From assembly GCA_965197585.1 (NCBI GenBank), contig OZ240215.1, positions 1,952,001 through 2,016,000 on the forward strand: a DNA stretch of 64,000 bases, given 5' to 3'. The position numbers were made by a program, and so were the translations under genes. The notes under the pieces are model-generated. The model did not search any database. It saw nothing but the letters and a program-made list of their open reading frames with translations, and was not told where the DNA came from. Origin of the DNA: Dehalococcoidia bacterium (lineage in GTDB: Bacteria; Chloroflexota; Dehalococcoidia; Plut-88900). Positions 5,529 through 64,000 of this stretch are shown here, piece after piece. How positions within the stretch are numbered: position 1 is the stretch's first letter; every line of letters starts with the position of its first letter.

Positions 5529-5843
5529 TTATCGTTGGAGATTGATCTTGACACCTCCAACTCGGCTGGCCACCGAGTTATACAGCCAAGCTCCGAATGC
5601 TCCAGCCACGAACCCCACAGCTCCGCCGATAACCGGCATTGCAAGTAAAGCGCCAAAGGCAAGTGCCGTCCCAGAGCTTAGCCCAGGCGTTTCATCCGAA
5701 GTTACCCACCCTGCACTGACGAGTATGTCGATGATGGCGCCACCGAAGGAATAGATGATCCCAGCAAGCAACCCGAGAACTACGCCTCCAGCAACTGACA
5801 GCTTCGCTGCCGACCCCACTCCGATTCTGGTCAGAACTTCCAT
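5529..5843 (-). CDS. Small membrane protein, DUF3566-like
   Basis: Two hydrophobic segments; RIGVGSAAK ... WLYNSVASRVGGVKI; GGAGG RBS. Confidence 0.6.
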   Translation of the reverse strand: MEVLTRIGVGSAAKLSVAGGVVLGLLAGIIYSFGGAIIDILVSAGWVTSDETPGLSSGTALAFGALLAMPVIGGAVGFVAGAFGAWLYNSVASRVGGVKINLQR

Positions 5844-5929
5844 CGCATCCCTACCTCCAGGCATGTTGACCGGGATTTCCCATATTGTGAGTCTTCAGGC
5901 TCAAAGAGCAGCCCCAACGAGATAATGGC

Positions 5930-5958
5930 ATCATATTTGGCTCTGCAAGGCCAGTCAA
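5930..5958 (-). promoter_or_regulatory. sigma70-type promoter TTGACT-17-TATGAT
   Basis: Near-consensus with 17-bp spacer, upstream of the 5843 ORF. Confidence 0.55.
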
Positions 5959-6295
5959 TCTCCGGTCTATCCGATAAGGGATGCGGCTCTTGCCGTGAAC
6001 CATGCTTCTTGTCCGTCTTTGTTGTCTTCAGGCTCCCCGCCAATGGCGTGAAAGCGCATGGAAGACAAGGCGGCTCCCTGGAGCGCTCTCCCTCTTGGCA
6101 AGATCGTGGTTGCATTCTCCCTCAGCTTGGCGCCGGCGATAACCGGCCGATACGATCCAACACTCCCTGAAACACCCGTCTAGGAACCGACGCCTCGGAT
6201 AACTGAAAGATCAACCGCCGAAAGTGGCGCACCAGCCGACCTCCCATGTGAATCCACAGAGTCGAAGGGTCTCAAGAACGGAATGGGGTGGTGCC

Positions 6296-7043
6296 CTCCC
6301 AAAAGTGACACGAACCCCTTGACTAAAGCAAAACACTTGTACTATATTCACCCTCGACTAGCTAGTCACACACCTAAACCCTAAGGAGGAACCACAACCC
6401 GGGGGGAAGCCCAGCCCCGGCCCACACGAGGACTCAACGTCCCAGCCCATCCCAACGGGCGGCCCACGCGCCGCCCCTCGGCTCAAGCGAAAGCCGCCAT
6501 CTCCTCATTCCAAAGGCCCCGGCTCACCCTTCCCCCACCAACCACCAAGCGATGGAAGGTCCACAGACTATGCTCGGCAGGCCCCGTCCTACGACGCCCC
6601 TGCCGATTCAACGCCCCCCATCATCGGGTGCGTTTATCCCGGCCCTTTGCGCGCCGGTTTCCCGGGTAGGTCAACCGACCCCCGGTTTAACAAGGCCCTC
6701 GTGCCTTGTTTGTCCCGCCGTCCCCGCCATCCGTCTACCCGGCGGATGCACCAGGACGCCGGTTATGAAAGTCCGCCTCAGGCGGTATCTTCCCCGTCAG
6801 CGGTCCGGTCAAGTGCCGCTGCCGGTGGGATCTGCCCCACACAACCCTGACCACAGCCGACAACGTGTGGGGATAATCCAGCCCGGTGCCGACGGCTCGG
6901 CAGCAACCCACGGCCTGGTTTCTAGTCCCGGACCTTCCATCGCCTACCTCCCCTCAACAAACAAACCCGAAACACCCAAATCCCAATCGAAGATGGGACA
7001 TCCGCCTTGGGCGGGTCCCCCGCAGGAGGATTGAATAAACACC
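6296..7043 (+). ncRNA. Large structured non-coding element, copy 1 (putative ncRNA with own promoter)
   Basis: 5' block similar to 32577-32836; 3' block similar to 33241-33356 and to the reverse complement of 63500-63604; long-range stem 6549-6562/6930-6943. Confidence 0.7.
6319..6348 (+). promoter_or_regulatory. sigma70 promoter TTGACT-18-TATATT with overlapping LexA-like box AAAC-N4-GTAC
   Basis: Conserved in copy 2 (32602-32631). Confidence 0.6.
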
Positions 7044-7150
7044 GCCCACCCCTCCCGCTTGACCAAAACTCCCAATAAGGTAACAATGACAACCGACCCA
7101 AAGCTCACAGGCCGGTCTTTACCCAACGAATAAATGCAGGGGGTAACCGT

Positions 7151-8251
7151 ATGGGATACCGGATTATTTCAGCAGACAGCCACCTCGACTTGATATGGGT
7201 GCCCCACGACGCCTTTACGTCCAGGGCTCCTGCCGAGTGGAAAGACAAGGTCCCCTACGTAGAATCGCGGCCCGAGGGCAACTACTGGATGGTCGAGGGA
7301 CGCACCATGACTCGGGCAGGCTGGTATGGTCCCGGTGTCAACGGTGGCCAGCGTGGCGAGATGCTGGACAGAGAGGGCTTCACCCTCGGCGACCTACGCT
7401 GCTCCGACTACAAGTTGAGAAAGGCCGACCAGGAGCGGGACGGCGTCGACGCCGAGGTAATCTACGGCATCCTCAGCACAGACCGCAGCTTTGACGACAA
7501 AGAGGCCCTGGCCGCCACTTACCGCGCCTACAACGACTACATCTCTGAGTGGCAGCAATACGATCCTGAGTGGCTTGTCCCATTGGGGGAGATACCCAAC
7601 CACAACGGTAAGGTCGCCGGTGCCGAGCTCTCCCGCCTCGCCGATATAGGAGTCCGAGGCGCCGAGTTCGCCCCCGCCACCATGACCCAACCCTTCTGGA
7701 GCGACGAATGGGAACCACTCTGGGCGGCGGGAGAGGACACCCAGCTGCCCATCTCCTTCCACGCCTTCAACATATCCACCACCTTCTCCGACAAGGACCA
7801 CCCCGCCGCCGCAGCCGTAAACCTTGTACTGGCTCCCTCCCGCGCCGACGAGGTGCTCTGCTCCCTGATCTTCTCCGGCATCCTGGAAAGGCACCCCAGG
7901 TTCAACGCCATCCTCGGCGAGAGCGGCATCGGCTGGCTCCCCTTCACGCTGGAGCGCATGGACTACTCCTATGAGCGCCGCCTCACCGACCTGGAGCTTC
8001 CCATCCCTCCCTCCGAGTACTTCAGGCGTCAGGTCTATGCCAGCTTCATCATCGACTATTGGGGCACGAAGGCCATGTGGGAGCTGGGCTACCTGAAGAA
8101 CATCATGTGGTCCACCGACTACCCTCACCGAGACGGCTCTTGGCCCGACTCACAAGAAGTCATTGAGCGGACCTTCAGCGGCTTGCCCGAGGAGGTCAAG
8201 AAGGCCTGTGTCCACGACAACGTCGTCAGCCTGTTCAACCTGAACGACTGA
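7151..8251 (+). CDS. Amidohydrolase family protein (Amidohydro_2)
   Basis: ISADSH, ISFH, GESGIGW, WSTDYPH. Confidence 0.93.
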   Translation: MGYRIISADSHLDLIWVPHDAFTSRAPAEWKDKVPYVESRPEGNYWMVEGRTMTRAGWYGPGVNGGQRGEMLDREGFTLGDLRCSDYKLRKADQERDGVDAEVIYGILSTDRSFDDKEALAATYRAYNDYISEWQQYDPEWLVPLGEIPNHNGKVAGAELSRLADIGVRGAEFAPATMTQPFWSDEWEPLWAAGEDTQLPISFHAFNISTTFSDKDHPAAAAVNLVLAPSRADEVLCSLIFSGILERHPRFNAILGESGIGWLPFTLERMDYSYERRLTDLELPIPPSEYFRRQVYASFIIDYWGTKAMWELGYLKNIMWSTDYPHRDGSWPDSQEVIERTFSGLPEEVKKACVHDNVVSLFNLND

Positions 8252-30958: not shown

Positions 30959-31067
30959 TGATTTCCTCCCAGTTGGTTACTTCAGTCGGTACCCGGCTGA
31001 GCCATTATATCAGTACGTTTGACACCCGTTTTCAGCGATGGGATACTCGCTCGAAGGGGGCACAACT

Positions 31068-32237
31068 ATGAAATACACCACTATTTCGGCGGACACGCAT
31101 ATCGACATCCCGTGGCTTCCGGCGGATTTGTTCACGTCCAACGCCCCAGATGAGTACACGTCCCACATGCCCCAGGTCGAGGAGACCGACCAAGGCTTGA
31201 TGTGGATGGTGGACGGGCAAGTGTTGGGGTCCGTTGCGGGGGCCGGCCTCAAAGACGCATGGGAGCCCTACGTTCCAGGACTGTCAAAGCACCTCGACGA
31301 AATGGCTGGCACGGAGTTCTTCACCGATGGGGAAAAGGGGCAATTCCACCCCACCACGCCCCACCTCCGCCTTCAAGACCAGGACTTGGACGGCGTACAG
31401 GCAGAGGTAATTTACGGCATCCTGGGCTTGGGCGGCGGGTTACCGGTCGGGGGCAATGATTACGGCATCACCGACGCCGACCGCACGGTTTTGATGTATG
31501 ACATCTACAACGAGTGGCTGGCCGGTTTTTGCAGCAGCAATCCCGACAGATTCGCCGGACTCGCCTGCCTCACCAGCCACGACCCGAAGGTAGCCGCAGA
31601 TCAACTGCGGAAAGCCGCCGAGATGGGACTTCGGGGCGCCGAACTGAACGTCAGTCAAGCCGTCAAACCCATCTACCACGAGGCTTGGGACCCCCTATGG
31701 GCCGTCTCAGAAGAGTGTCAAATGCCCGTTTCCTTCCACACTCTCGGCATACCCTACCGCAAGCCCGACCCCGAAGACCGGAAGAGGCTGGAGTGGGTAG
31801 ACTTTGGACTCACCTTGGTGATGTTTCAACTTTCCGGGGCAGAGTTCCTGGCAAGTATGACCTTCGGAGGCGCATGTGACCGGTACCCGGGGCTCAAGTA
31901 TGTTCTCGGAGAGTGCGGCATCGGGTGGATCCCCTACGTCCTCTACCGTATGGACGAGGAATACAAAGAGACTCTGTTCCACCTGAACCTGAGCATGGAG
32001 CCCAGCCAGCTGTGGCATCGGCAGGGTTACTCCACATTCCAGCACGAACGCCCAACCCAGGAGGTGGTGGACACAATCGGTGAGGAGAACGTGATGTGGG
32101 GCTCCGACTACCCTCACCATGATGGCGTCTGGCCCTACTCTCAGAGGGTGATAAAGGAAGACTTGGGACACCTCGAGCAGTCGGTGATTGACAAGATCAC
32201 TTGCCACAACGCGGCAAAGCTGTACCGGTTCAACTAA
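31068..32237 (+). CDS. Amidohydrolase family protein
   Basis: ISADTH, SFH, LGECGIGW, GSDYPH. Confidence 0.93.
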   Translation: MKYTTISADTHIDIPWLPADLFTSNAPDEYTSHMPQVEETDQGLMWMVDGQVLGSVAGAGLKDAWEPYVPGLSKHLDEMAGTEFFTDGEKGQFHPTTPHLRLQDQDLDGVQAEVIYGILGLGGGLPVGGNDYGITDADRTVLMYDIYNEWLAGFCSSNPDRFAGLACLTSHDPKVAADQLRKAAEMGLRGAELNVSQAVKPIYHEAWDPLWAVSEECQMPVSFHTLGIPYRKPDPEDRKRLEWVDFGLTLVMFQLSGAEFLASMTFGGACDRYPGLKYVLGECGIGWIPYVLYRMDEEYKETLFHLNLSMEPSQLWHRQGYSTFQHERPTQEVVDTIGEENVMWGSDYPHHDGVWPYSQRVIKEDLGHLEQSVIDKITCHNAAKLYRFN

Positions 32238-32576: not shown

Positions 32577-33386
32577 CCCCCCAAAAAGTGACACGAACCC
32601 ATTGACTGAATCAGGACATCTGTACTATTATCCCCCTCGACTAGCTCGTCACTCACCCTAAACACCAAGGAGGAACCAAAAACCCAGGGGGAAGCCCAGC
32701 CCTGGCCCCCGAGGACTCAACGCCCCAGCCCATCCCAACGGCCCTGCACACGGGACCCGCGGCACAAGCGAACGGCGCCATCTCCTCATCCCACCGGGTC
32801 CCGTGTCCCCTTCCCTACCCAGGCGATAGAAGGTCCATCGACTCAATACGGGCAGCCCCTCTCTCATCGAGACCCTGCCCTTTCGCGCCCTACCTGATGG
32901 GCGCACTGTTTAACCGGCATTGACTTCGCCGGTAACAGGTACGGCCCCACTTTGTCGGGCCTGGGGCCTCAGGGCCCTTGCGGGACTCCACCGTCGTAGT
33001 CATATACGATGGAAGCGGGTTCGCGCTCCCTCTTCACAGAGAGGTCGAGCGCTACGGGACTCCACCGTCGTAGTCATATACGACGGAAGCGGGTTCGCTC
33101 TTCCTCCTCATAAAGAGGTCGAGCGCCACTGGTAGACGGGTATGCGCCCCACGCCGAGACTCTCTCGGTCCGCCCCGGAACCAACTTGAAAACCTGTGGG
33201 GTTGCGCAGGCTGGCCTCCCGCCCCCTGTGCCCGAGTCCCGGACCTTCCATCGCCGACCCCCTCCCACCAGACAAACCGAAAACCCGAAACACGACAATC
33301 GAAGATGGAACATCCGCCTCAGGAGGATCCGCCTCAGGAGGACTGAAGAAAACCCCGGTGTGTCACTAACCTACCGAACGAGTACA
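32577..33386 (+). ncRNA. Large structured non-coding element, copy 2
   Basis: Promoter TTGACT(32602)-18-TATTAT; conserved 5'/3' blocks; stem 32822-32836/33241-33255. Confidence 0.7.
32981..33128 (+). repeat. Tandem 74-bp duplication inside copy 2
   Basis: cgggactccaccgtcgtagtcatatacga... begins at 32981 and again at 33055. Confidence 0.9.
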
Positions 33387-33696
33387 ACCCCTTGCCCTTC
33401 TCCCCTTCACTCCGCCTACAATCTCCCGTGAGCTTACGACTCCAATTACGCCCTTTCCTTCCATCCCATGGTTTGGGGGTGCGCAAAAATCTTTCCCGAA
33501 TCAATCAAACAGGCACGGATTCAATCTGAAACAATCAAACTTCGCAGGTTATGACAACAAGCATGCTCCATTCATCGTCCTCTCGGCATCCCAACCTCCT
33601 GAGCAATTGCCGGATATTGACTATACCAACCCATGTTCTTAACATAGCCAGTTAGAGAAGACGTGCGACACATTTGATGTGATTTAGGAGGAGCCG

Positions 33697-34857
33697 ATGG
33701 ACTACAACATTATTACCGCAGACACCCACATGGACGTCACCTGGCTGCCGGGCGACATGTTTGTCAAAGGCGCACCCGACGCCCTTAAGGACAAGATGCC
33801 CTATGTCAACAATAAGAACGGCAAACCCCAATGGGAGATCGAAGGAGAGTTCATGTGCTGGGTCGGGGGCGGGGGACTCACCGGAGCCTTTGGAGGCTAC
33901 GTGCCCGGCGAATCAAAACACCTGGACCGCATGGCCGAGGTGGGCTTCTTCGACGGCATCAAGGATGGTGTATACCACCCCTCAAACGCCGACCTCCGGG
34001 TCAAGGACCTGGACATAGACGGCCTGGACGCCGAGGTCATTTACGGGATCCTTGGCATCGGTGGAGGCGGCTTCTCCGGCCCCGGCTTCAAGGACCCCGA
34101 AGTCACCGCTACCATCTATGACGTCTACAACGAGTGGATTGCAGAATTCACGTCGACCGACCCCGGCCGGATGAAGGGTCTGGCCTGCCTCGCCAGCCAC
34201 GATCCCGCCAGAGCCGCCCAACAGCTCAGAAGAGCCGGCGAGCTGGGTCTTAGGGGCGCCGAGATCAACGTCGGCACTATGGTAAAACCCGTGTATCACA
34301 GGGACTGGGACCCCCTATGGGCCACTTCCGCTGAATACCAGATGCCTATCTCCTTCCACACCCTCGGTGTCCCCCATCGGACACCCGACGCCGCGGACGC
34401 AGAGGCCTACCGTTGGCTTAGCGTCTGCCTCAACTACACCCTATTCCAGCTCTCGGGGGCGGAGTTCCTGTGCAGCATCGTTCTCTCAGGCGCCTGTGAA
34501 CGCTACTCTGATTTCAACTTCGTCCTGGGTGAATGCGGCATCGGCTGGATCCCCTACGTCATCGAGCGCACCGACGAGGAGTACGACGACCGAGGATTCC
34601 ACATGGGCTATCCGATGAAGCCCAGCGAGTACTGGAGACGGCAGGGTCACTCCACCTTCCAGAACGAGTACGTATCCGTCGACCAGATCGAGCGAATCGG
34701 ACTCGACAACATCATGTGGGGCAACGACTATCCCCACCCCGACGGCGTATTCCCCGATTCGAAGAAGGCGCTGGATGACGGCCTAGGCCACCTGCCCGCA
34801 GACATCCGCAACAAGATAGTGTGCGAAAACGCCATTAAGGCCTATCGCTTTAACTAG
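33697..34857 (+). CDS. Amidohydrolase family protein
   Basis: ITADTH, SFH, LGECGIGW, GNDYPH. Confidence 0.93.
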   Translation: MDYNIITADTHMDVTWLPGDMFVKGAPDALKDKMPYVNNKNGKPQWEIEGEFMCWVGGGGLTGAFGGYVPGESKHLDRMAEVGFFDGIKDGVYHPSNADLRVKDLDIDGLDAEVIYGILGIGGGGFSGPGFKDPEVTATIYDVYNEWIAEFTSTDPGRMKGLACLASHDPARAAQQLRRAGELGLRGAEINVGTMVKPVYHRDWDPLWATSAEYQMPISFHTLGVPHRTPDAADAEAYRWLSVCLNYTLFQLSGAEFLCSIVLSGACERYSDFNFVLGECGIGWIPYVIERTDEEYDDRGFHMGYPMKPSEYWRRQGHSTFQNEYVSVDQIERIGLDNIMWGNDYPHPDGVFPDSKKALDDGLGHLPADIRNKIVCENAIKAYRFN

Positions 34858-35251: not shown

Positions 35252-36394
35252 ATGGAATACAGCGTTATCTCTGCTGACACCCACCTCGACCTCACCTGGC
35301 TTCCCGGCGACATGTTCGTCGAGGCCGCACCGGCTCATCTCAAGTCCCAGATGCCCTACACAACCGACGCGGGACCCGAGAAGCGCTGGATTGTTGAGAA
35401 AGAGGACATCGCACGCGCAGGCGGATTTATAGGCTACACTCCCGGTCACTCCAAGCACATGGACCGAATGGCCGAGGTCGGCTTCTATGACGGAGTTGCG
35501 GACGGCGTCTACCATCCCGCCGTAGCCGATCTCCGAGTCCAGGACCAGGACCTGGACGGCATTGACGCCGAGATCATCTACGGCATCCTCGGCATAGCCG
35601 GCGGCGGGTTCTCGGGCCCCGGGTTCCGAAACCCGGAGGTGACCACGGCCATCTACGACATCTACAACGAATGGGTTAGTGACTTCGCGAAGGCCTCCCC
35701 CCAGAGACTCGGGGCCCTGGCCTGCGTCATAAGCCACGATCCCGAAGTCGCAGCTAAGCAGTTGAGACGAGCGGCGAAACTGGGCCTGAAAGGCGCCGAG
35801 ATCAACGTCGCGAAAATGAGTTCACCCATGTACCAGAAGGATTGGGATGTGCTTTGGGCCGTAGCCGACGAATGCGACATGCCTATCTCTTTCCATACTC
35901 TCGGCATTCCCACACGCACACCTGAAGGGGAGTCGGCATCGGACTACGCTGTCGCCTATGACGGGGTTAGAGAATGCCTCTTCCAGCTGTCGGGGGCCGA
36001 GTTCCTGGTCAGCGCCGTCTTTTCTGGGGCCTGTATGCGCTACCCCAATTTCCAGTTCGTCCTCGGTGAGTGCGGTATCGGTTGGATCCCGTACGTCATT
36101 GAGCGAATGGATGCGGAATATGAAGACCGCTACCACCCCATAGGCCTTGAGATGGCTCCGACGGCCTACTGGCGTCGGCAGGGATTCTCCACCTTCCAGA
36201 ATGAATTCGTCTCCCAGGACCAGGTGGACAGGATTGGGGCCGAGTGCATCATGTGGGGTTCCGACTATCCCCACCGGGACGGCGTCTTCCCCGACTCCCG
36301 AAAGGTCATAACCGAAGGAATGGGCCACCTGGACGATGCTGTTACCCAGCAGATCGTCTGTGGCAACGCCGCACGTCTTTACAACTTCAACTGA
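35252..36394 (+). CDS. Amidohydrolase family protein
   Basis: Close paralog of 33697-34857. Confidence 0.93.
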   Translation: MEYSVISADTHLDLTWLPGDMFVEAAPAHLKSQMPYTTDAGPEKRWIVEKEDIARAGGFIGYTPGHSKHMDRMAEVGFYDGVADGVYHPAVADLRVQDQDLDGIDAEIIYGILGIAGGGFSGPGFRNPEVTTAIYDIYNEWVSDFAKASPQRLGALACVISHDPEVAAKQLRRAAKLGLKGAEINVAKMSSPMYQKDWDVLWAVADECDMPISFHTLGIPTRTPEGESASDYAVAYDGVRECLFQLSGAEFLVSAVFSGACMRYPNFQFVLGECGIGWIPYVIERMDAEYEDRYHPIGLEMAPTAYWRRQGFSTFQNEFVSQDQVDRIGAECIMWGSDYPHRDGVFPDSRKVITEGMGHLDDAVTQQIVCGNAARLYNFN

Positions 36395-40295: not shown

Positions 40296-41531
40296 ATGGG
40301 CTACACAGGTAAAGTTATCTCCGGGGACTGCCACGTGGACATACCGTGGCTGCCCGCAGACCTATTCACCTCCAACGCTCCGTCCCATCTCAAGGACCGG
40401 ATGCCCCACGTGGAGGACACCAAGGATGGCGAGCAGTGGTTCGCCGGAGGCAGGCAACTCGGTTGCGTTGGGGGCGCCGGCATCGGACTGCAGCCCAGTC
40501 TATTCTGGGACCCCTATGTGCCCGGAGTCTCCACTCGGCTGGACCGGATGGAGGAACAGAATTTCTTCACCGATGCTCAACAGGGCCTGTTCCACCCCAC
40601 CACCCCCGAGTTGAGAATCAAGGACCAGGAGACGGACGGTATAAAGGGTGAGGTGCTATACGGCGTCCTGGCCCTGGCCAGCGGTTTTGGCTCGACTCAA
40701 GGTGAAGAAGGAGCAGTCATAGGCGGTGACGAACCCAGTGGCCCCGGTTACGGCCTCACCGACCCGGATGCCATCCTCTCAGCCTTCGACATCTATAACC
40801 AGTACATAGCTGACTTTTGCAATACCAACCCGGATAGATTAGCGGCCCTTGCCTGCCTATTTGCCCGAGACCCCAAAGAGGCTGCGCGCCAGGTACATCG
40901 TGCCGCAGAACTGGGTCTTAAGGGTACCGAACTCAACGTGAGCTCCACCGAAGAACCGATCTATCTCCGGGACTGGGACCCCTTGTGGGCCGCTGTGGAC
41001 GAGTCTGGGTTGCCGATCTCGTTCCACACGGTCGGGCTGTCGCCCAAGGCGCCGAAGAGGGACACCACAGCGTCAGAAAGGGCGATCATGACAGGGGTGG
41101 CACTGACCGTCTTCCAGCTGTCGGGCGCGGAATTTGTATCCAGCATCATCCTTTCCGGCGCATGCGAGCGGTACCCGAATATGAAGTTCGTCCTGGGAGA
41201 ATGCGGCGTCGGGTGGCTTCCCTACGTCCTGTTCAGGATGGACGACGAGGCGGAGCGCTGGAAGATCGCAGAGCACGGCCTGAAAATGAAGCCGTCCGAA
41301 TACTGGCACCGCCAGGGTTACTCCACATTCCAGATCGAGTACCTCACCAATGAGATGGTGGAGACGGTGGGAGAGGACAACATTCTTTGGGGCTCCGACT
41401 ACCCACACCCCGACTGCGTGTGGCCCGACTCCCGGTCCGTCATCGATGAGAACCTGAGCCACCTGGACGAGGGCAAGCTAAAGAAGATCGTGTGTGATAA
41501 CACGGCCAAATTGTACGGTTTCCCCAACTAA
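40296..41531 (+). CDS. Amidohydrolase family protein
   Basis: ISGDCH, SFH, LGECG, GSDYPH. Confidence 0.93.
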   Translation: MGYTGKVISGDCHVDIPWLPADLFTSNAPSHLKDRMPHVEDTKDGEQWFAGGRQLGCVGGAGIGLQPSLFWDPYVPGVSTRLDRMEEQNFFTDAQQGLFHPTTPELRIKDQETDGIKGEVLYGVLALASGFGSTQGEEGAVIGGDEPSGPGYGLTDPDAILSAFDIYNQYIADFCNTNPDRLAALACLFARDPKEAARQVHRAAELGLKGTELNVSSTEEPIYLRDWDPLWAAVDESGLPISFHTVGLSPKAPKRDTTASERAIMTGVALTVFQLSGAEFVSSIILSGACERYPNMKFVLGECGVGWLPYVLFRMDDEAERWKIAEHGLKMKPSEYWHRQGYSTFQIEYLTNEMVETVGEDNILWGSDYPHPDCVWPDSRSVIDENLSHLDEGKLKKIVCDNTAKLYGFPN

Positions 41532-41590: not shown

Positions 41591-42817
41591 ATGAGCTATA
41601 CGGGCAAGGTTATATCGGGGGACTGTCACCTGGACATTCCCTGGCTGCCGGAAGACCTGTTCACGTCCCGGGGCCCGGCTCACCTGAAAGACAAGATGCC
41701 CCGGGTGAAGGAAACCGACCAGGGCCTCAAGTGGTTCTCCGAAGACCGCGTACTTGGTTGGGTTGGAGGCGCCGGAATCGGCGTGAGGCCCGGGGGTTGG
41801 GACCCGTATGTCTCGGGGATGTCCAAGCGGCTGGACCGTATGGAGGAGCTTAAATTCTTCTCCGACGCCAACAACAGGGTCCTGCGCCCCGGCACCGCAG
41901 ATTTAAGAATCAAGGACCAGGACTCCGACGGCGTGAGTGGCGAAGTGATATACGGCGTACTGGGGCTTGGCGGGTTTGCCGGCCAAAACGAATCGGAGAG
42001 TGCGCCGGTTATGGGCGACGAGCCCTCGGGCCCCGGCTACGGCATACAGGACCCGGAGGTGATTACCGCCGTCTACGATGCCTACAGTGAGTGGATGTCG
42101 GGCTTTTGCAAGACCAACCCGGACCGGCTGGTGGGCCTCACCTGTCTCAGTCCCAACGACCCGAACATCGCCGCGGCACAGCTGCGGCGGGCCTCGGACC
42201 TCGGTCTCAGGGGCGCGGAGATGAACGTCGCCTCCGCTACCGACCCCCTCTACCACAAGAACTGGGACGCATTATGGGAAGCCGCCGACGAGACGGGCCT
42301 GCCCATATCCTTCCACACCGTCGGCATCGCGCCCCGGTCCCCGAAACCCGAGGAGGTAGAGGACTACCACTGGGTGCTGAACGGCCTCGTGATAACCATG
42401 TTCCAGCTAGCAGGGGCCGAATACCTAGCCAGCATCATCTACGGCGGGGCCCTGGATCGTTATCCCAACTTCAAGTTCATCCTGGGAGAGTGCGGCATCG
42501 CATGGATCCCCTACGTCCTGTTTCGCATGGACGACGAGTACGAAAGGCAGCTCTTCCACCTGGGCCTCAGCATGAAGCCCAGCGAGTACTGGGCCCGCCA
42601 GGGTTACTCCACCTTCCAGATAGAGCACCTGACGAACGAGATGATCGACGTGGTTGGCGAGGACAACATCATGTGGGGGTCCGACTACCCGCACCCCGAC
42701 TGCGTCTGGCCCGACTCCCGGACTGTGATCAACGACCACCTCGGACACCTCGATGAGTCCAAGATCAGGAAGCTGGTCTGTGACAACACAGCCAAGCTGT
42801 ACGGATTCCCGAACTAG
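41591..42817 (+). CDS. Amidohydrolase family protein
   Basis: Tandem paralog of 40296-41531. Confidence 0.93.
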   Translation: MSYTGKVISGDCHLDIPWLPEDLFTSRGPAHLKDKMPRVKETDQGLKWFSEDRVLGWVGGAGIGVRPGGWDPYVSGMSKRLDRMEELKFFSDANNRVLRPGTADLRIKDQDSDGVSGEVIYGVLGLGGFAGQNESESAPVMGDEPSGPGYGIQDPEVITAVYDAYSEWMSGFCKTNPDRLVGLTCLSPNDPNIAAAQLRRASDLGLRGAEMNVASATDPLYHKNWDALWEAADETGLPISFHTVGIAPRSPKPEEVEDYHWVLNGLVITMFQLAGAEYLASIIYGGALDRYPNFKFILGECGIAWIPYVLFRMDDEYERQLFHLGLSMKPSEYWARQGYSTFQIEHLTNEMIDVVGEDNIMWGSDYPHPDCVWPDSRTVINDHLGHLDESKIRKLVCDNTAKLYGFPN

Positions 42818-49817: not shown

Positions 49818-49870
49818 TTTTGAGGTCCTCCTAATTGAGTCACGGGGTTATTCTTCTAGGATCGGGGAAC

Positions 49871-49907
49871 ACCCTTACCCTAGCCCTCTTCCATCGAGGG
49901 AGAGGGT
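49871..49907. repeat. REP-like family A (inverted)
   Basis: cccttaccctagccctcttccatcgagggagaggg. Confidence 0.7.
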
Positions 49908-49926
49908 ACAGGATACATCCGCCTGC

Positions 49927-61971: not shown

Positions 61972-63393
61972 CTAGTTCGCGTGCGCCATCTGCACCGGCG
62001 CAGGGCCGATCTTGTTGTAGCAATCCAGGGCGGCGACTTTGTAGCACTCGGCGAGGGTGGGGTAGTTGAAGACGGTGTTGACGAAGTAGTCGAGGGTGCC
62101 GCCGAAGGCCAGGACGGCCTGGCCTATGTGAATGAGCTCTGCGGCCTCGGCGCCGATGATGTGGATGCCCAGCAACTCCCGGGTGTCCCTGTGAAACAGC
62201 ATTTTGAGCATCCCCGTGTCGTCGCCGAGAATGTTGCCCCGCGCTATCTCCCGGTACCTGGCCAGGCCCACCTCGTAAGGGACACCGGCCTCGGTCAAAG
62301 CCTGCTCCGTGCCACCGACCATGGACAGTTCGGGCACGGAGTAGATGCCGAAGGGGTAGTGGTGGGGGGAGGAGTGGTACTCGATCCCGAAGGCGTGGCA
62401 GGCCGCGGCCCGGCCCTGCTCCATGGAGGTCGAGGCCAGGGAGGGGAATCCCACCACGTCGCCTACCGCGTAGATGTGGGATTGTGCAGTCTGGTAGTGA
62501 TCGCCGACGGGTATGCGGCCTCGGTTGTCGGAGGTCAGGCCGGCGGAGTCGAGATTCAGCACACCTGTTGCGCCCATCCGCCCAACTGAATACATGAGCA
62601 GGTCGGATGTGATTCTCTTTCCCGACTTTAGCGAGGCGACGGCCTTGCCGCCGATGGACTCCACGAGCTCCACTTCCTCGCCGAACCGGAAGATGCAGCC
62701 CATGTTGCGCATGTGGTAGACGAGGGCCTCGGTCAATTCCCTGTCTACGAAATCAAGGATGCCGGAACGTTTCTCCACAACGGTGACTTCCGAGCCGAGG
62801 GCGGCGAAGATCGAGGCGTACTCGATTCCGATTACCCCGGCCCCGACCACGGTCATCGTGCGCGGAATGGTGTCCAAGCTGAGGACTCCGTCGGAGTCGA
62901 CGATCGCCCGGCTGTCAACGTCGAACCCCGGCAGGGACGCGGGCGTCGTGCCGGTGGCTATCACGATCTTGTCGGCCTCGACTCGGACCGTGCCTTTTCG
63001 CCCGGTGACCGCCAGGACGTTGGGAGATTCGAAGGCGGCCTCGCCCTGCAGAACATCGACGCGATTGCGCCTCATCTGGTGGCGGATCACCTCGGTTTCC
63101 TGGACGATCACGTGGTTGCAGCGGAAGAGGAGGTCGTCCGCCATGGATATGTCTTCTTTGACCGTGAAGGAAGAGCCGTAGATGCCCCGCTGTCGGAAGC
63201 CGGTCAGGTATAGCACGGCCTCGCGAAAGGTCTTGGAGGGGATGGTACCGGTGTTGATGCATACACCGCCGACGACTTCTCTACGCTCGCAGATCCCGAT
63301 CTTTTTGCCCAGCTTGGCAGCCTGGATTGCGGCGCGTTGCCCGGCAGGCCCGGTACCGATCACGAACATGTCGTAGCGTCCGTTTTCGGCCAT
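61972..63393 (-). CDS. sthA: Si-specific NAD(P)+ transhydrogenase
   Basis: GGVCINTGTIPSKT, GAGVIGIEYAS, FNYPTLAECYKVAA. Confidence 0.95.
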   Translation of the reverse strand: MAENGRYDMFVIGTGPAGQRAAIQAAKLGKKIGICERREVVGGVCINTGTIPSKTFREAVLYLTGFRQRGIYGSSFTVKEDISMADDLLFRCNHVIVQETEVIRHQMRRNRVDVLQGEAAFESPNVLAVTGRKGTVRVEADKIVIATGTTPASLPGFDVDSRAIVDSDGVLSLDTIPRTMTVVGAGVIGIEYASIFAALGSEVTVVEKRSGILDFVDRELTEALVYHMRNMGCIFRFGEEVELVESIGGKAVASLKSGKRITSDLLMYSVGRMGATGVLNLDSAGLTSDNRGRIPVGDHYQTAQSHIYAVGDVVGFPSLASTSMEQGRAAACHAFGIEYHSSPHHYPFGIYSVPELSMVGGTEQALTEAGVPYEVGLARYREIARGNILGDDTGMLKMLFHRDTRELLGIHIIGAEAAELIHIGQAVLAFGGTLDYFVNTVFNYPTLAECYKVAALDCYNKIGPAPVQMAHAN

Positions 63394-63473: not shown

Positions 63474-64000
63474 TGTATTCGTTCGATAGATTAGTGACAC
63501 ACCGGCCTTTTCTTCAGTCCTCCAGAGGCGGATGTTCCATCTTCGATTGTGGGGTTTCGGTTTCCGTTCTGTCTGTTAGGTTTTGAGAAGGCGATGAAAG
63601 ACGCTTGCCGGATTAGGCTCCCTACATTTAGATAATGCGGGCTAAGAGGCGTCCCGGGAGCGTGGGACGGGACTCCGCCGCCGCCTAGACCTGGAAGTAT
63701 GGTCGGACGTACGGGTCCGTCATCCGTCATAGGCTCCAATGAGGTTTGGCTGCGCTGTCCGCCGTAGGCGGATGCAGTAAGGGGAAAGTCCAGGGTCAGT
63801 TCCCCTCGCAGGAGTACGGGATATCCAGTTAGCCGCCTGTATCCAGGAGCCGGGAGTGGCGGACAGTCCAGTTTATTTGAGGAAGCGGACGGAGAGCCGA
63901 GCGGTCCTCGGCTACGGGCTGCCCCGTTCCGCTCCATGGGTCGGGTTGCTCCGTGAGGAGACTTTTAAGTACGGTCCAGGGCGTCTTCCATCGCCTAGTG
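63474..64000 (-). ncRNA. Large structured non-coding element, copy 3 (5' part outside window)
   Basis: The reverse complement matches the 3' block of copy 2 (caatcgaagatggaacatccgcctc.ggaggactgaagaaaa..ccggtgtgtcactaa.cta.cgaacga.taca); stem 63981-63995/63590-63604. Confidence 0.7.

Follow-up and report, generated by a model that had tools for sequence, protein, structure and literature searches.

The stretch of Dehalococcoidia DNA analysed here (the window, 64,000 nucleotides long) contains three copies of a sequence in which two complementary arms enclose several hundred nucleotides of variable DNA. A preliminary description interpreted the arms as a covarying long-range stem and proposed that selection acts on single-strand secondary structure. 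The questions raised by the locus are to what kind of element the stem belongs, and what selection acts on.

Stem-closed repeats in the window

The organization of the three copies and their surroundings is as follows.

6300..6348, plus strand: left conservation edge (AAAAGTGACACGAACCCC) of copy 1 with its own promoter (promoter scan, motif counts)
6319-6348, plus strand: copy 1 promoter, TTGACT-18-TATATT (10/12 matches in promoter scan, 0.3 expected)
6349..6548, plus strand: conserved 5' block of copy 1 (nhmmer profile, 57 full matches)
6383-6389, plus strand: orphan Shine-Dalgarno-like AAGGAGG of copy 1
6399..6420, plus strand: small 5' hairpin CCGGGG/CCCCGG of copy 1 (covariation unsupported)
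6428-6455, plus strand: near-invariant GAGGACTCAACG..GCCCATCCCAA of copy 1
6493-6508, plus strand: anti-Shine-Dalgarno-like GCCGCCATCTCCTCAT of copy 1
6549..6562, plus strand: 5' arm of the closing stem of copy 1, followed by GACTA at 6566-6570
6563..6929, plus strand: variable core of copy 1 with about ten GC-rich hairpins; subtype 'cluster 2' (clustering, fold, 25-core alignment)
6766-6788, plus strand: optional 22-nt hairpin module of copy 1
6930..6943, plus strand: 3' arm of the closing stem of copy 1, with TAGTC at 6923-6927 just before it
6944..7040, plus strand: 3' tail of copy 1, beginning with a linker rich in C/A, then an optional module (TCGAAGATGG..CCGCC..GGAGGA) and TGAATAAA
7059-7087, plus strand: resident promoter-like TTGACC-17-AACAAT, 3' of copy 1 (promoter scan)
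7151-8251, plus strand: amidohydrolase gene co-oriented with copy 1 (Pfam PF04909, E 1.5e-17)
32602..32821, plus strand: copy 2 promoter (TTGACT 32602-32607, TATTAT 32626-32631) and 5' block
32822..33255, plus strand: stem-closed core of copy 2 (arms 32822-32836 / 33241-33255)
33256..33397, plus strand: 3' tail of copy 2, containing the right-end inverted repeat
33360-33386, plus strand: right-end inverted repeat GTGTCACTAACCTACCGAACGAGTACA of copy 2, followed by 5 nt and then -35-like TTGCCC
33697-34857, plus strand: amidohydrolase gene downstream of copy 2, to which the -35-like TTGCCC belongs
63590..64000, minus strand: stem-closed core of copy 3, subtype 'cluster 1' (5' block beyond the window end)
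63474..63589, minus strand: 3' tail and right-end inverted repeat of copy 3, followed by TTGACA
63393-61972, minus strand: flavoprotein gene co-oriented with copy 3 (Pfam PF07992)

The closing stem pairs as originally described in all three window copies, and it is also present in 56 of the 57 full copies in the 3.43 Mb genome, where the arms are 315–543 nt apart. The arms of copy 1 are 14 nt long and 100% complementary, those of copy 2 are 15 nt long and 93% complementary, and those of copy 3 (minus strand, 63995-63981 / 63604-63590) read GGCGATGGAAGACGC / GCGTCTTTCATCGCC and form 14 Watson-Crick pairs and one G-U. The reported change of GTC to ACG is found on both arms of copy 3. The copy-specific continuations of the helix, GACTA/TAGTC, GACTC/GAGTC, and CTGGA/TCCGG, are likewise in the sequence, and that of copy 1 is also part of the minimum-free-energy fold. 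The exact 11-mer of the arm occurs ten times outside the copies (both strands together, five per strand); four of these occurrences coincide in position with family-2 or partial copies, and six remain. Because the arm pair is present in nearly all full copies and its 11-mer is rare elsewhere, the stem is more than a chance feature.

Distribution and coding status of the repeat family

It had been overlooked that the three copies are members of a mobile, promoter-bearing repeat family with about 70 copies, and this membership changes what the target of selection may be. The repeat is 0.65–0.9 kb long, with distances of 738–1102 nt between left and right ends. Per genome, the main family has about 57 copies and a sister family about 14; together these make up the roughly 70 copies of the source genome and, by a rough estimate, 2% of its sequence. 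The repeat occurs in all eight congeners and in none of the 392 other genomes of the class; in the class-wide search 9 of 401 genomes were positive, all from the genus. A comparison with three other genera of the family and with 29 other families gave no occurrence in any of them. An exact-motif search of genome, metagenome, and viral contig collections, which may omit the genus, returned no matches.

The repeat was rejected both as a protein-coding gene and as a known RNA family. Its sole long open reading frame in copy 1 (160 aa, 6552-7034) has no Pfam match, and copies at least 90% identical to each other differ by frameshifting indels of one nucleotide. In the sister family, long reading frames range from 249 to 357 aa and are low-complexity in appearance. 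Rfam 15, whose models include large structured RNAs as well as group II introns, matched none of the copies searched. Across the window it identified, at gathering score, a 5S rRNA and a tRNA and nothing else; on 5700-7200 it gave nothing credible at E values up to 5, and 13 loci covering other subtypes had no matches at gathering score.

Selection on the fold

The proposal that selection acts on a single-strand fold stands with respect to the rates of change at paired and unpaired sites; by contrast, the covariation of the closing stem, on which it was originally based, comprises very few independent events. In 12 orthologous copies with unswapped cores from two genomes, 70 of 3006 paired sites differ, as against 106 of 1987 unpaired sites (Fisher p 2.8e-8), in a comparison that uses predicted structures and a single genome pair. 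Expressed as rates, these are 2.3% (paired) and 5.3% (unpaired), with 5.4% in the flanks, and the lower rate of paired sites holds within G/C sites and within A/T sites. In 25 cores of the copy 1 type from five genomes, 7 of 105 predicted pairs still pair after two-sided change. Hairpins deep in the core display both compensatory changes and slow evolution. Selection on the predicted fold of the element is supported by these comparisons.

Stem positions 12–14 each contain two types of Watson-Crick pair in near-equal numbers among 112 distinct copies: G-C 50 and A-T 54 at position 12, T-A 47 and C-G 42 at position 13, and C-G 55 and G-C 54 at position 14. The six-position extension of the helix has a mean of 4.28 canonical pairs, compared with 3.56 ± 0.07 when the 3' arms are permuted (300 permutations, maximum 3.74). 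The independent covariation events within the long-range stem are, nevertheless, very few: one lineage-shared GTC/ACG switch and the family-2 variant. A single protein binding both inverted repeats would be expected to generate the same pattern.

Two further elements of the preliminary description are not supported. The covariation claimed for the 5'-block hairpin (CCGGGG/CCCCGG, 6399-6404 / 6415-6420) is indistinct from background, with 75.1% of cells paired in 44 distinct copies versus 74.0% after shuffling, and with the observed figure attained in 60 of 500 shuffles; where both positions of its A/G-T/C pair are occupied (35 sequences), 26 sequences do not pair there. As the 3' GAAGATGG module is optional, the outer helix CCATCT/AGATGG can form in just 16 of 56 copies. 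The 5' block is conserved in other respects. The orphan Shine-Dalgarno-like AAGGAGG is present in 57/57 copies and GCCATCTCCTC in 56/56, and the 5'-block motifs are also found in the copies of eight other genomes. Across the genus the block as a whole falls to about 72–79% identity to copy 1, and the near-invariant motifs persist in nine genomes.

The strand on which the fold acts is not named by the pattern of wobbles and mismatches, as had been stated from the outset: 23 transitions at paired sites are compatible with the plus strand and 17 with the minus strand (p 0.43). The suggested tally of G-U against A-C pairs gives 13 and 23, respectively, among 71 distinct arm combinations, the latter including position-11 calls due to a bulged A, and it names no strand either. 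In the alignment of copy-1-type cores, a tally by eye found G-U in 15 pairs and A-C in 17. Relative to 100 dinucleotide shuffles the core fold has a z of -8.2 on the plus strand and -7.7 on the minus strand. The folding energy is -214.9 kcal/mol for the minus strand and -186.2 kcal/mol for the plus strand; a strand call on this basis was rejected, since the minus strand, being G-rich, always gives the lower energy.

Ends and insertion sites

The intact form of the element has imperfect terminal inverted repeats of the type TG...CA and a 5-bp target duplication. A motif search for the ends found 16 left and 25 right motifs, and the inner part of the inverted pair is recovered by a repeat tool. 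The left end TGATCCCGTTC..GTGACA and the right end TGTCAC..GAACGAGTACA co-occur in 17 of 57 copies; the left inverted repeat is missing in 40/57 and the right in 31/56. The majority of copies are thus either degenerate or represent a different form. Family-wide conservation begins at GTGACA, and the right-end inverted repeat is absent from the 3' tail of copy 1 (6944..7040). Among the 17 two-ended copies, inspection by eye identified an exact 5-nt repeat in seven, a match of 4/5 (or 4/4, or with a 1-nt offset) in another seven, and three or fewer matches in the remaining three. The hexamer that follows the duplication starts with TTG in 9/17 and with TT in 13/17.

Two clean empty sites, GCCTCCC^TTAGCA and CCCCCAAAA^TTGAGCC, were found in the sister genome G002 by mapping 28 source-genome loci onto 2.05 Mb of its sequence; the same sites are filled in the source genome. 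Both place the insertion against a -35-like hexamer. The empty site p1815092 corresponds to a 4-nt repeat, and p1428074 to matches at three of five positions. A congener that lacks the element at the site of copy 2 has TTGCCC-N17-TACAAT there. In a third and a fourth candidate for presence/absence, the flanks are so diverged, or so occupied by other repeats, that the junctions are illegible.

Insertion sequences of the IS3/IS481 type, which encode an rve transposase, are characterized by TG...CA termini and duplications of 3–5 bp. The element has TG..CA termini and a 5-bp duplication; the one rve insertion sequence seen, inside copy p660651, was rejected as the source of the partner transposase because its ends are unrelated. 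No autonomous partner with the same ends was found in the source genome, in which each of the 16 left motifs is located either in a non-coding copy or at the promoter of groES. The core was also considered as an independently mobile, nested MITE, which is not supported: it was not found outside the two scaffolds, and there is no target duplication around the closing-stem arms (copies 1 and 2).

Core subtypes and their exchange

The closing stem is common to two families that differ in their 5' blocks. Clustering divides the stem-closed cores of the source genome into at least seven old subtypes, and the core types recur, with the stem kept, in congeneric species. Of 16 orthologous loci, 4 have had their core subtype replaced at an unchanged insertion site, and in three of these the new subtype is known from elsewhere in the source genome. 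In the two exchange loci that were aligned, the right breakpoint is at the 3' arm, whereas the left one falls at a different position of the 5' block in each. The subtype of copy 2 occurs once in the source genome; an orthologous copy with the same subtype is present in genome G005, and G002 has another subtype at the same locus. The 22-nt hairpin module is present or absent among otherwise similar cores and is also found elsewhere. Cores contain tandem duplications, such as that of 74 nt at 32981-33128 in copy 2.

Promoter and gene context

A near-consensus sigma-70 promoter, TTGAY-N17/18-TAnnnT, is present in 57/57 copies. It is located just inside the left end and points inward, usually toward the next gene. 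A crude gene caller places a co-oriented gene downstream of 44 of 56 copies and a divergent one upstream of 36 of 56; 12 of 56 copies face a convergent gene. The genes downstream of the copies are unrelated and include amidohydrolases, a flavoprotein oxidoreductase, and tRNA genes. A scan of the plus strand of copy 1 found no terminator-like site, which makes read-through into the downstream gene probable. Contigs from the RNA libraries of two studies fall on the 5' block (6427-6539) of this multi-copy family, and such contigs show neither strand nor transcription; their depth is inseparable from copy number. No RNA-library contigs, at 92% likeness, cover the variable core (6608-7009), which says nothing either way. 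We infer transcription of the element, its start site, and read-through from the promoter and its surroundings.

Proposed mechanism and alternative explanations

The explanation that we favor, with slightly better than even confidence, is that the repeat is a MITE-like, genus-specific, non-coding mobile promoter/leader element, the fold of which is under selection, probably as plus-strand RNA. The stem is the conserved closing helix of the core, and the right end of the element lies directly against a -35-like hexamer. Each copy may be transcribed from its own promoter into an untranslated, C-rich plus-strand RNA consisting of the 5' block with the orphan Shine-Dalgarno, about ten hairpins tied together by the 14–15-bp stem, and a C/A-rich tail. 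Read-through would probably make this RNA a long structured leader of the downstream gene. Pairing of the stems would be maintained by selection, and the conserved arms and flanks may allow recombination between paralogous copies, resulting in core exchange. The folded core might serve the stability or processing of the RNA, the insulation of the downstream start, or the binding of a factor. A bolder proposal, possible but doubtful, is that the cores are structured RNAs of 320–540 nt in at least seven old subtypes, delivered by a transposon with their own promoter to the edge of a -35 box and exchanged by recombination. They would then constitute a cis-regulatory leader system that is mobile, modular, and self-promoted (or an RNA gene family) and has no described counterpart, and the orphan Shine-Dalgarno and anti-Shine-Dalgarno-like motifs would point to interaction with the ribosome.

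A serious minority alternative is that the arms and hairpins act as DNA, as single-stranded or cruciform structures or as protein-bound inverted repeats, in transposition or in site-specific core exchange, with the promoter being incidental or aiding spread. A role as DNA is consistent with the lack of strand asymmetry among the wobble-compatible changes, with the equally good folding of both strands relative to shuffles, and with the occurrence of one stem in two families whose 5' blocks differ. It also accords with the core exchange at 4/16 orthologous loci and with the position of the 3' arm at the right edge of the replaced tract in both alignments. However, the left breakpoints vary, which is less expected of a site-specific cut than of paralogues undergoing homologous recombination; the arms have no flanking target duplication, and no solitary core was found, with six solitary arm 11-mers remaining outside the copies. 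Moreover, the deep core hairpins, for which a protein binding the ends has no need, show compensation and slow evolution. It is improbable that the repeats are stand-alone genes for a trans-acting structured RNA; in that case the subtypes would be variants differing in function, and both the transposon-like ends and the location near promoters would be secondary. The retention of the promoter in every copy, the motifs near-invariant in nine genomes despite 72–79% identity of the block, the recurrence of the core subtypes among species, and the 12/56 copies without a co-oriented downstream gene agree with such genes; yet 44/56 copies are co-oriented with the next gene, and copy 1 has no terminator-like site on its plus strand. 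Gain and loss of copies and swapping of cores between close relatives would also be unusual for essential RNA genes.

The core may alternatively have no function and be a pile of small palindromic insertions in a selfish repeat, in which the stem persists because the copies are young. The variable 22-nt module that also occurs elsewhere, the tandem duplications within cores, and the few independent covariation events of the long stem would be expected of such a pile, which is nevertheless very improbable given that the stem is kept in other species of the genus with 5' blocks 72–79% identical to copy 1, that paired sites change less than half as often as unpaired sites and flanks (2.3% versus 5.3% and 5.4%), and that compensatory changes are present. 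Inverted repeats of 14–15 bp around 320–540 bp next to promoters are also reminiscent of an invertible segment (inverton). That possibility is next to nil and was rejected, as it is contradicted by the assemblies searched: matches of at least 80 nt between 112 core interiors number 1814 on the plus strand and 0 on the minus strand, and there is no inverted match at the swapped orthologous loci.

The favored mobile promoter/leader element would place a strong promoter and a 0.7-kb folded leader before dozens of unrelated genes and tRNAs. If the element is transcribed as inferred, it would amount to a regulatory layer common to the whole genus, spread by transposition and diversified through core swaps. 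An apparent landing site flush with a -35 box is unusual, and the element provides a natural test of selection maintaining RNA or DNA folds within selfish DNA. For annotation, about 70 long intergenic regions per genome are repeats rather than unknown genes.

Comparison with known systems

By convention, MITEs are small, with a size of a few hundred base pairs. The element is larger, 738–1102 nt from end to end; it has no conserved open reading frame, and has terminal inverted repeats, a target duplication, and presence/absence polymorphism. In one review, bacterial MITEs are described as non-autonomous derivatives of insertion sequences, typically AT-rich with small cores, with an example of 113–145 bp (PMC10969869). 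The element resembles the MITEs of that review in lacking a transposase, in having terminal inverted repeats and a short target duplication, in its numerous intergenic copies and their insertion polymorphism, and in the very stable stem-loops predicted for transcripts (PMC10969869). Unlike them, it is C/G-rich and 0.65–0.9 kb long, and its stable fold is formed by the internal stem and about ten hairpins and not by the terminal repeats (PMC10969869). It also differs from MITEs in its swappable core subtypes and in that a partner insertion sequence was not found in the source genome.

Correia elements are several times smaller than the element described here. The Correia repeat-enclosed elements of Neisseria have an inverted repeat and a conserved core, supply promoters to genes, and give rise to an RNA stem that is a target of RNase III (PMC2649163). 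Inverted repeat, conserved core, and promoter next to genes are common to both (PMC2649163). By analogy, Correia elements are the nearest model for a repeat-borne stem that may set the expression of the next gene. Compared with the Correia elements, the element has a complete inward promoter instead of hexamers generated by its ends, its ends and target are different, and it belongs to an unrelated genus.

The BOX elements of pneumococci have a modular boxA-boxB-boxC layout. Like the BOX repeats (PMC3049150), the element is a modular intergenic repeat with conserved ends, a variable middle, and a strong predicted RNA structure. The two differ in size, sequence, and lineage, and the middle of the element consists of distinct subtypes of 320–540 nt under one conserved stem rather than of short units in variable number.

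Putative mobile promoters are highly similar promoter-bearing sequences upstream of unrelated genes in one genome (PMC3575422). The element corresponds to them in having a near-identical promoter region before non-homologous genes (PMC3575422). By contrast with the cases outlined there (PMC3575422), the vehicle is defined here by its ends, target duplication, and empty sites, and along with the promoter it carries about 0.7 kb of untranslated sequence that is both conserved and structured.

Organization of the element family

Iterated nhmmer searches with a profile of the element's 5′ block gave 80 matches, 57 of them full length, in the source genome, a single 3.43-Mb contig with a G+C content of 59%. 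In each copy, a promoter is followed by approximately 230 nt of conserved 5′ block and then by the core with its closing stem. Next come a linker rich in C and A, the CCGCC..GGAGGA modules, which are optional, and TGAATAAA; the last part, the motif GTGTCACTAATCTACCGAACGAGTACA, is present in 25 copies. The element is neither protein-coding nor a known RNA, because the sole long open reading frame of copy 1 has no match in Pfam, closely related copies are separated by 1-nt indels, and Rfam has no match to the element, whether across the window, at E values up to 5 in the region of copy 1, or at 13 loci of other subtypes.

Features of the window
6258-6293, 658-709, 1587-1638 and 49870-49913: short-repeat families (GTCGAAGGGTCTCAAGAACGGAATGGGGTGG; CCCTCTCCC..GGGAGAGGGCTAGGGTGAGGGTG)
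5529-5864: divergent DUF3566-like gene
5866-6205: sequence single-copy in the genome, non-coding according to Pfam and Rfam
approximately 6300-7040 (+): element copy 1, closing stem 6549-6562 / 6930-6943
6766-6788: 22-nt hairpin module TGAAAGTCCGCCTCAGGCGGTAT
7151-8251: PF04909 amidohydrolase gene
7151-8251, 31038-32237, 33697-34857, 35252-36394, 40296-41531 and 41591-42817: paralogous genes, 60-80% mutual DNA identity
14718-14835 (−): lone 5S rRNA gene; no 16S or 23S rRNA match within the 64-kb window
approximately 32602-33397 (+): element copy 2, closing stem 32822-32836 / 33241-33255
32981-33128: 74-nt unit in tandem duplicate in the core of copy 2, 91% identical
approximately 63474 to past the window end (−): element copy 3, closing stem 63995-63981 / 63604-63590

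Approximately 14 more copies form family 2, which has a 5′ block unlike that of the main family and shares with it only the promoter and a core closed by a GCGATGGAAGGTCC...GGACCTTCCATCGC-type stem. Copies of family 2 are located outside the window, near positions 62854, 505615, 684522, 1590853, 3022078 and 3386776 of G000:C1, the contig of the source genome, and elsewhere. Their 5′ block includes AAGGAGTCCC-ATG and the conserved, Arg-rich start of a reading frame (MSRTSL..RPRR.RAV); the frames are 249 to 357 residues long and do not look protein-like.

All 57 full copies carry TTGAY-N17/18-TAnnnT near the left end and, approximately 35 nt beyond this promoter, an AAGGAGG motif without a start codon. 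A scan of copy 1 identified the promoter TTGACT-18-TATATT (10/12 matches) and detected nothing resembling a terminator on the plus strand. A crude gene caller of our own, based on codon bias, places every copy between genes; of 56 copies, 44 have a co-oriented gene downstream and 36 a divergent gene upstream. By our reading, the right-end motif is missing from the copies that face a convergent gene, except for one, which precedes a tRNA gene missed by the caller. The downstream genes are mutually unrelated and include those for amidohydrolases, a flavoprotein oxidoreductase, and tRNAs. Two of the paralogous genes of the window, those starting at 7151 and 33697, are both positioned behind element copies.

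The segment 5866-6205 is represented in RNA-library contigs of three studies at a word depth of approximately 110-1430, whereas the depth over the adjacent amidohydrolase gene is 15-35. One possibility is a small RNA with high expression; another is a leader belonging to the divergent DUF3566-like gene. The approximately 30-nt motif GTCGAAGGGTCTCAAGAACGGAATGGGGTGG occurs in at least 20 copies, and the hairpin repeat CCCTCTCCC..GGGAGAGGGCTAGGGTGAGGGTG is often placed directly upstream of element copies.

The closing stem

The preliminary description proposed that a long-range stem closes the variable core in all three copies of the window. The 14-nt arms of copy 1 are indeed fully complementary, the 15-nt arms of copy 2 have the single mismatch claimed, and copy 3 has GTC replaced by ACG on both arms, with one G-U pair. 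The helix continues past an internal loop with copy-specific pairs in each of the three copies, as had been described, and also in the minimum-free-energy fold of copy 1. The 395-nt core of copy 1 has a much more stable predicted fold than 100 dinucleotide-shuffled sequences (z of −8.2 for the plus strand and −7.7 for the minus strand). Both arms were detected in all but one of the 57 full copies of the source genome, at a spacing of 315-543 nt; the exception has a 1-nt insertion within the 5′ arm.

In 112 distinct copies from nine genomes, stem positions 2-9 are nearly invariant Watson-Crick pairs, and positions 12-14 each occur as two Watson-Crick types in near-equal numbers, which is the pattern underlying the noted switch between GTC/GAC and ACG/CGT. 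The six-position extension of the stem contains on average 4.28 canonical pairs in these copies, compared with 3.56 ± 0.07 when the 3′ arms are permuted. Cognate inner arms form a duplex with an energy of −15.6 kcal/mol, compared with −12.0 kcal/mol for arms of other types and −11.2 kcal/mol for shuffled arms. The stem of family 2 represents a third variant, which has lost the outer four pairs and is extended inward by CCCGGAC/GTCCGGG. Because independent events are few, the covariation within the long stem taken alone is suggestive rather than decisive. The long-range stem is a real, conserved base of the structured core of the element.

Two further pairings put forward from the sequence were not supported. 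Covariation had been suggested for a hairpin in the 5′ block; however, a covariance model of this hairpin found 50 copies among the examined loci, and its pairing and covariation are no higher than in shuffles. The outer helix CCATCT/AGATGG depends on an optional 3′ module that is present in only 16 of 56 copies.

Selection on pairing and the functional strand

For 25 copy-1-type cores from five genomes, which are 72-100% identical, RNAalifold predicted 105 pairs, seven of which remain paired although both partners have changed; an example is a hairpin pair represented by U-A in 12 and by C-G in 10 of the sequences. Substitution rates were compared at 12 orthologous loci of the source genome and its closest congener, G002, after four of 16 loci with an unalignable core had been left out, and the paired sites were taken from a fold computed without G-U pairs. 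Differences affect 70 of 3006 paired and 106 of 1987 unpaired sites (odds ratio 0.42, p = 2.8e-8). The rates at paired sites are lower than those at unpaired sites for both G/C (1.8% and 3.7%) and A/T (3.9% and 6.8%), and the flanks differ by 5.4%, which indicates that the modelled stems are constrained by purifying selection and that the loops drift approximately as fast as the surrounding DNA.

The wobble and mismatch pattern does not name the functional strand, as had been anticipated: transitions at paired sites produced 23 plus-strand and 17 minus-strand G-U pairs (p = 0.43). The core of the stem contains 13 G-U and 23 A-C mismatches in 71 distinct arm combinations, the A-C count including position-11 bulged-A calls, and our own tally of the copy-1-type alignment gave G-U at 15 pairs and A-C at 17. 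Contigs from RNA libraries match the 5′ block; since this sequence is multi-copy, neither strand nor transcription can be read from them. A putative plus-strand RNA is suggested by the promoter, the orientation of the genes, and the orphan Shine-Dalgarno motif, and we consider a fold acting as an RNA leader about twice as probable as a structure formed by the DNA.

Distribution and exchange of cores

The element appears to be restricted to one genus. BLAST-level whole-genome searches detected it in all eight genomes of the genus, in none of three other genera of the family, and in none of 29 other families. With the conserved 186 nt as a query, nine of 401 genomes of the class matched, every one of them in the genus. 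Loci of seven congeners have an identical layout and the near-invariant motifs AAGGAGGAAC, GAGGACTCAACG..GCCCATCCCAACGG, and CGCCATCTCCTC; the identity of the whole 5′ block decreases to 72-79% in more distant congeners. An exact-motif scan of three public collections, which seemingly do not include this genus, gave no match.

Cores of the source genome fall into seven subtypes with 12, 10, 7, 6, 6, 5 and 5 members and five singletons. Copy 1 belongs to the seven-member group and copy 3 to the ten-member group; copy 2 is single. The core types are found again in other species of the genus and are therefore old. At four of the 16 loci orthologous between the source genome and G002, the core cannot be aligned despite matching flanks, and none of the four contains an inverted core match. 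At three of them, another subtype, present elsewhere in the source genome, matches the G002 core with 92-96% identity. Breakpoints were determined at two fully aligned loci; at both, the two genomes share the insertion site and the target duplication, and the 3′ tail and right end are near-identical. On the right, the replaced tract stops at the 3′ arm; its left edge is found either midway along the 5′ block or close to the left end. No common sequence lies nearer to the core than the arms, and gene conversion of paralogous copies, with the conserved blocks as anchors, fits the alignments. The locus of copy 2 shows similar behaviour: its subtype is shared by the congener G005, the copy-1 subtype occupies the site in G002, and a protein gene takes its place in three congeners.

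Smaller rearrangements are also observed. The TGAAAGTCCGCCTCAGGCGGTAT hairpin module is found in 19 and not in six of 25 otherwise similar cores, and also in 3′ tails, family 2 leaders, and one element-free intergenic site; it is possibly a mobile palindrome of very small size. Hairpin duplications akin to that in copy 2 occur in cores of other genomes (columns 115-142 of the copy-1-type alignment).

Ends of the element and insertion at promoters

Flanks of the copies in the source genome were mapped onto two rebuilt contigs of G002 (2.05 Mb), which are approximately 88-97% identical to it in syntenic blocks. Two loci are clean cases of presence and absence and show the element to be mobile. 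The first is empty in G002 (GCCTCCC^TTAGCA..TATTAT) and has in the source genome an 870-nt insertion, ATGATCTCGTTCAGATAGAGGAGTGACACC...GAGTACATCCC, ahead of TTAGCA. The second is empty in G002 as CCCCCAAAA^TTGAGCC and has, in the source genome, TGATCCCGTTCACATAGAGGGGTGACAT...GAGTACACTCAA ahead of TTGAGCC.

The ends are imperfect inverted repeats, with an outer part TG..C.CGTTC and an inner part GTGACA, and both are present in 17 copies. The 5 nt before the left end were compared by eye with the 5 nt after the right-end ...ACA; the target duplication is exact in seven of these copies, near-exact in seven (4 of 5, 4 of 4, or a 1-nt offset), and poor in three. The hexamer after the duplication starts with TTG in nine and with TT in 13 of the 17 copies, and adjoins the insertion point at both empty sites. 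Insertion therefore takes place at the 5 bp immediately preceding a −35-like box, or insertions elsewhere do not survive.

The left repeat is absent from 40 copies, which start with CCCCAAAAGTGACACGAACCCC-TTGAC and are positioned behind other repeats; in one copy it is displaced 220 nt upstream, with other repeats in between. In one locus of the source genome (L095:162-1433, G000:C1:659361-660632), an insertion sequence encoding a 423-residue rve-domain transposase is located exactly between the left repeat of the element and the −35 box. Its insertion point corresponds to the relative position of the other repeats in many copies. A solitary left inverted repeat directly precedes TTGCGA-N17-TAAAAT in the groES-groEL promoter (L096, G000:C1:3404800-3405500), which is followed by a CIRCE-like inverted repeat. 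This left repeat is either a remnant of the element or the source of its promoter-proximal end.

In summary, this is a genus-restricted, promoter-bearing element that inserts at promoters, with stems under purifying selection and cores exchanged among copies. No partner with these ends was found in the source genome, and apart from the missing partner insertion sequence and its size, the MITE-like nature of the element is well supported. The TG...CA ends and the 5-bp target duplication are reminiscent of a possible mobilization by IS3/IS481-type transposases.
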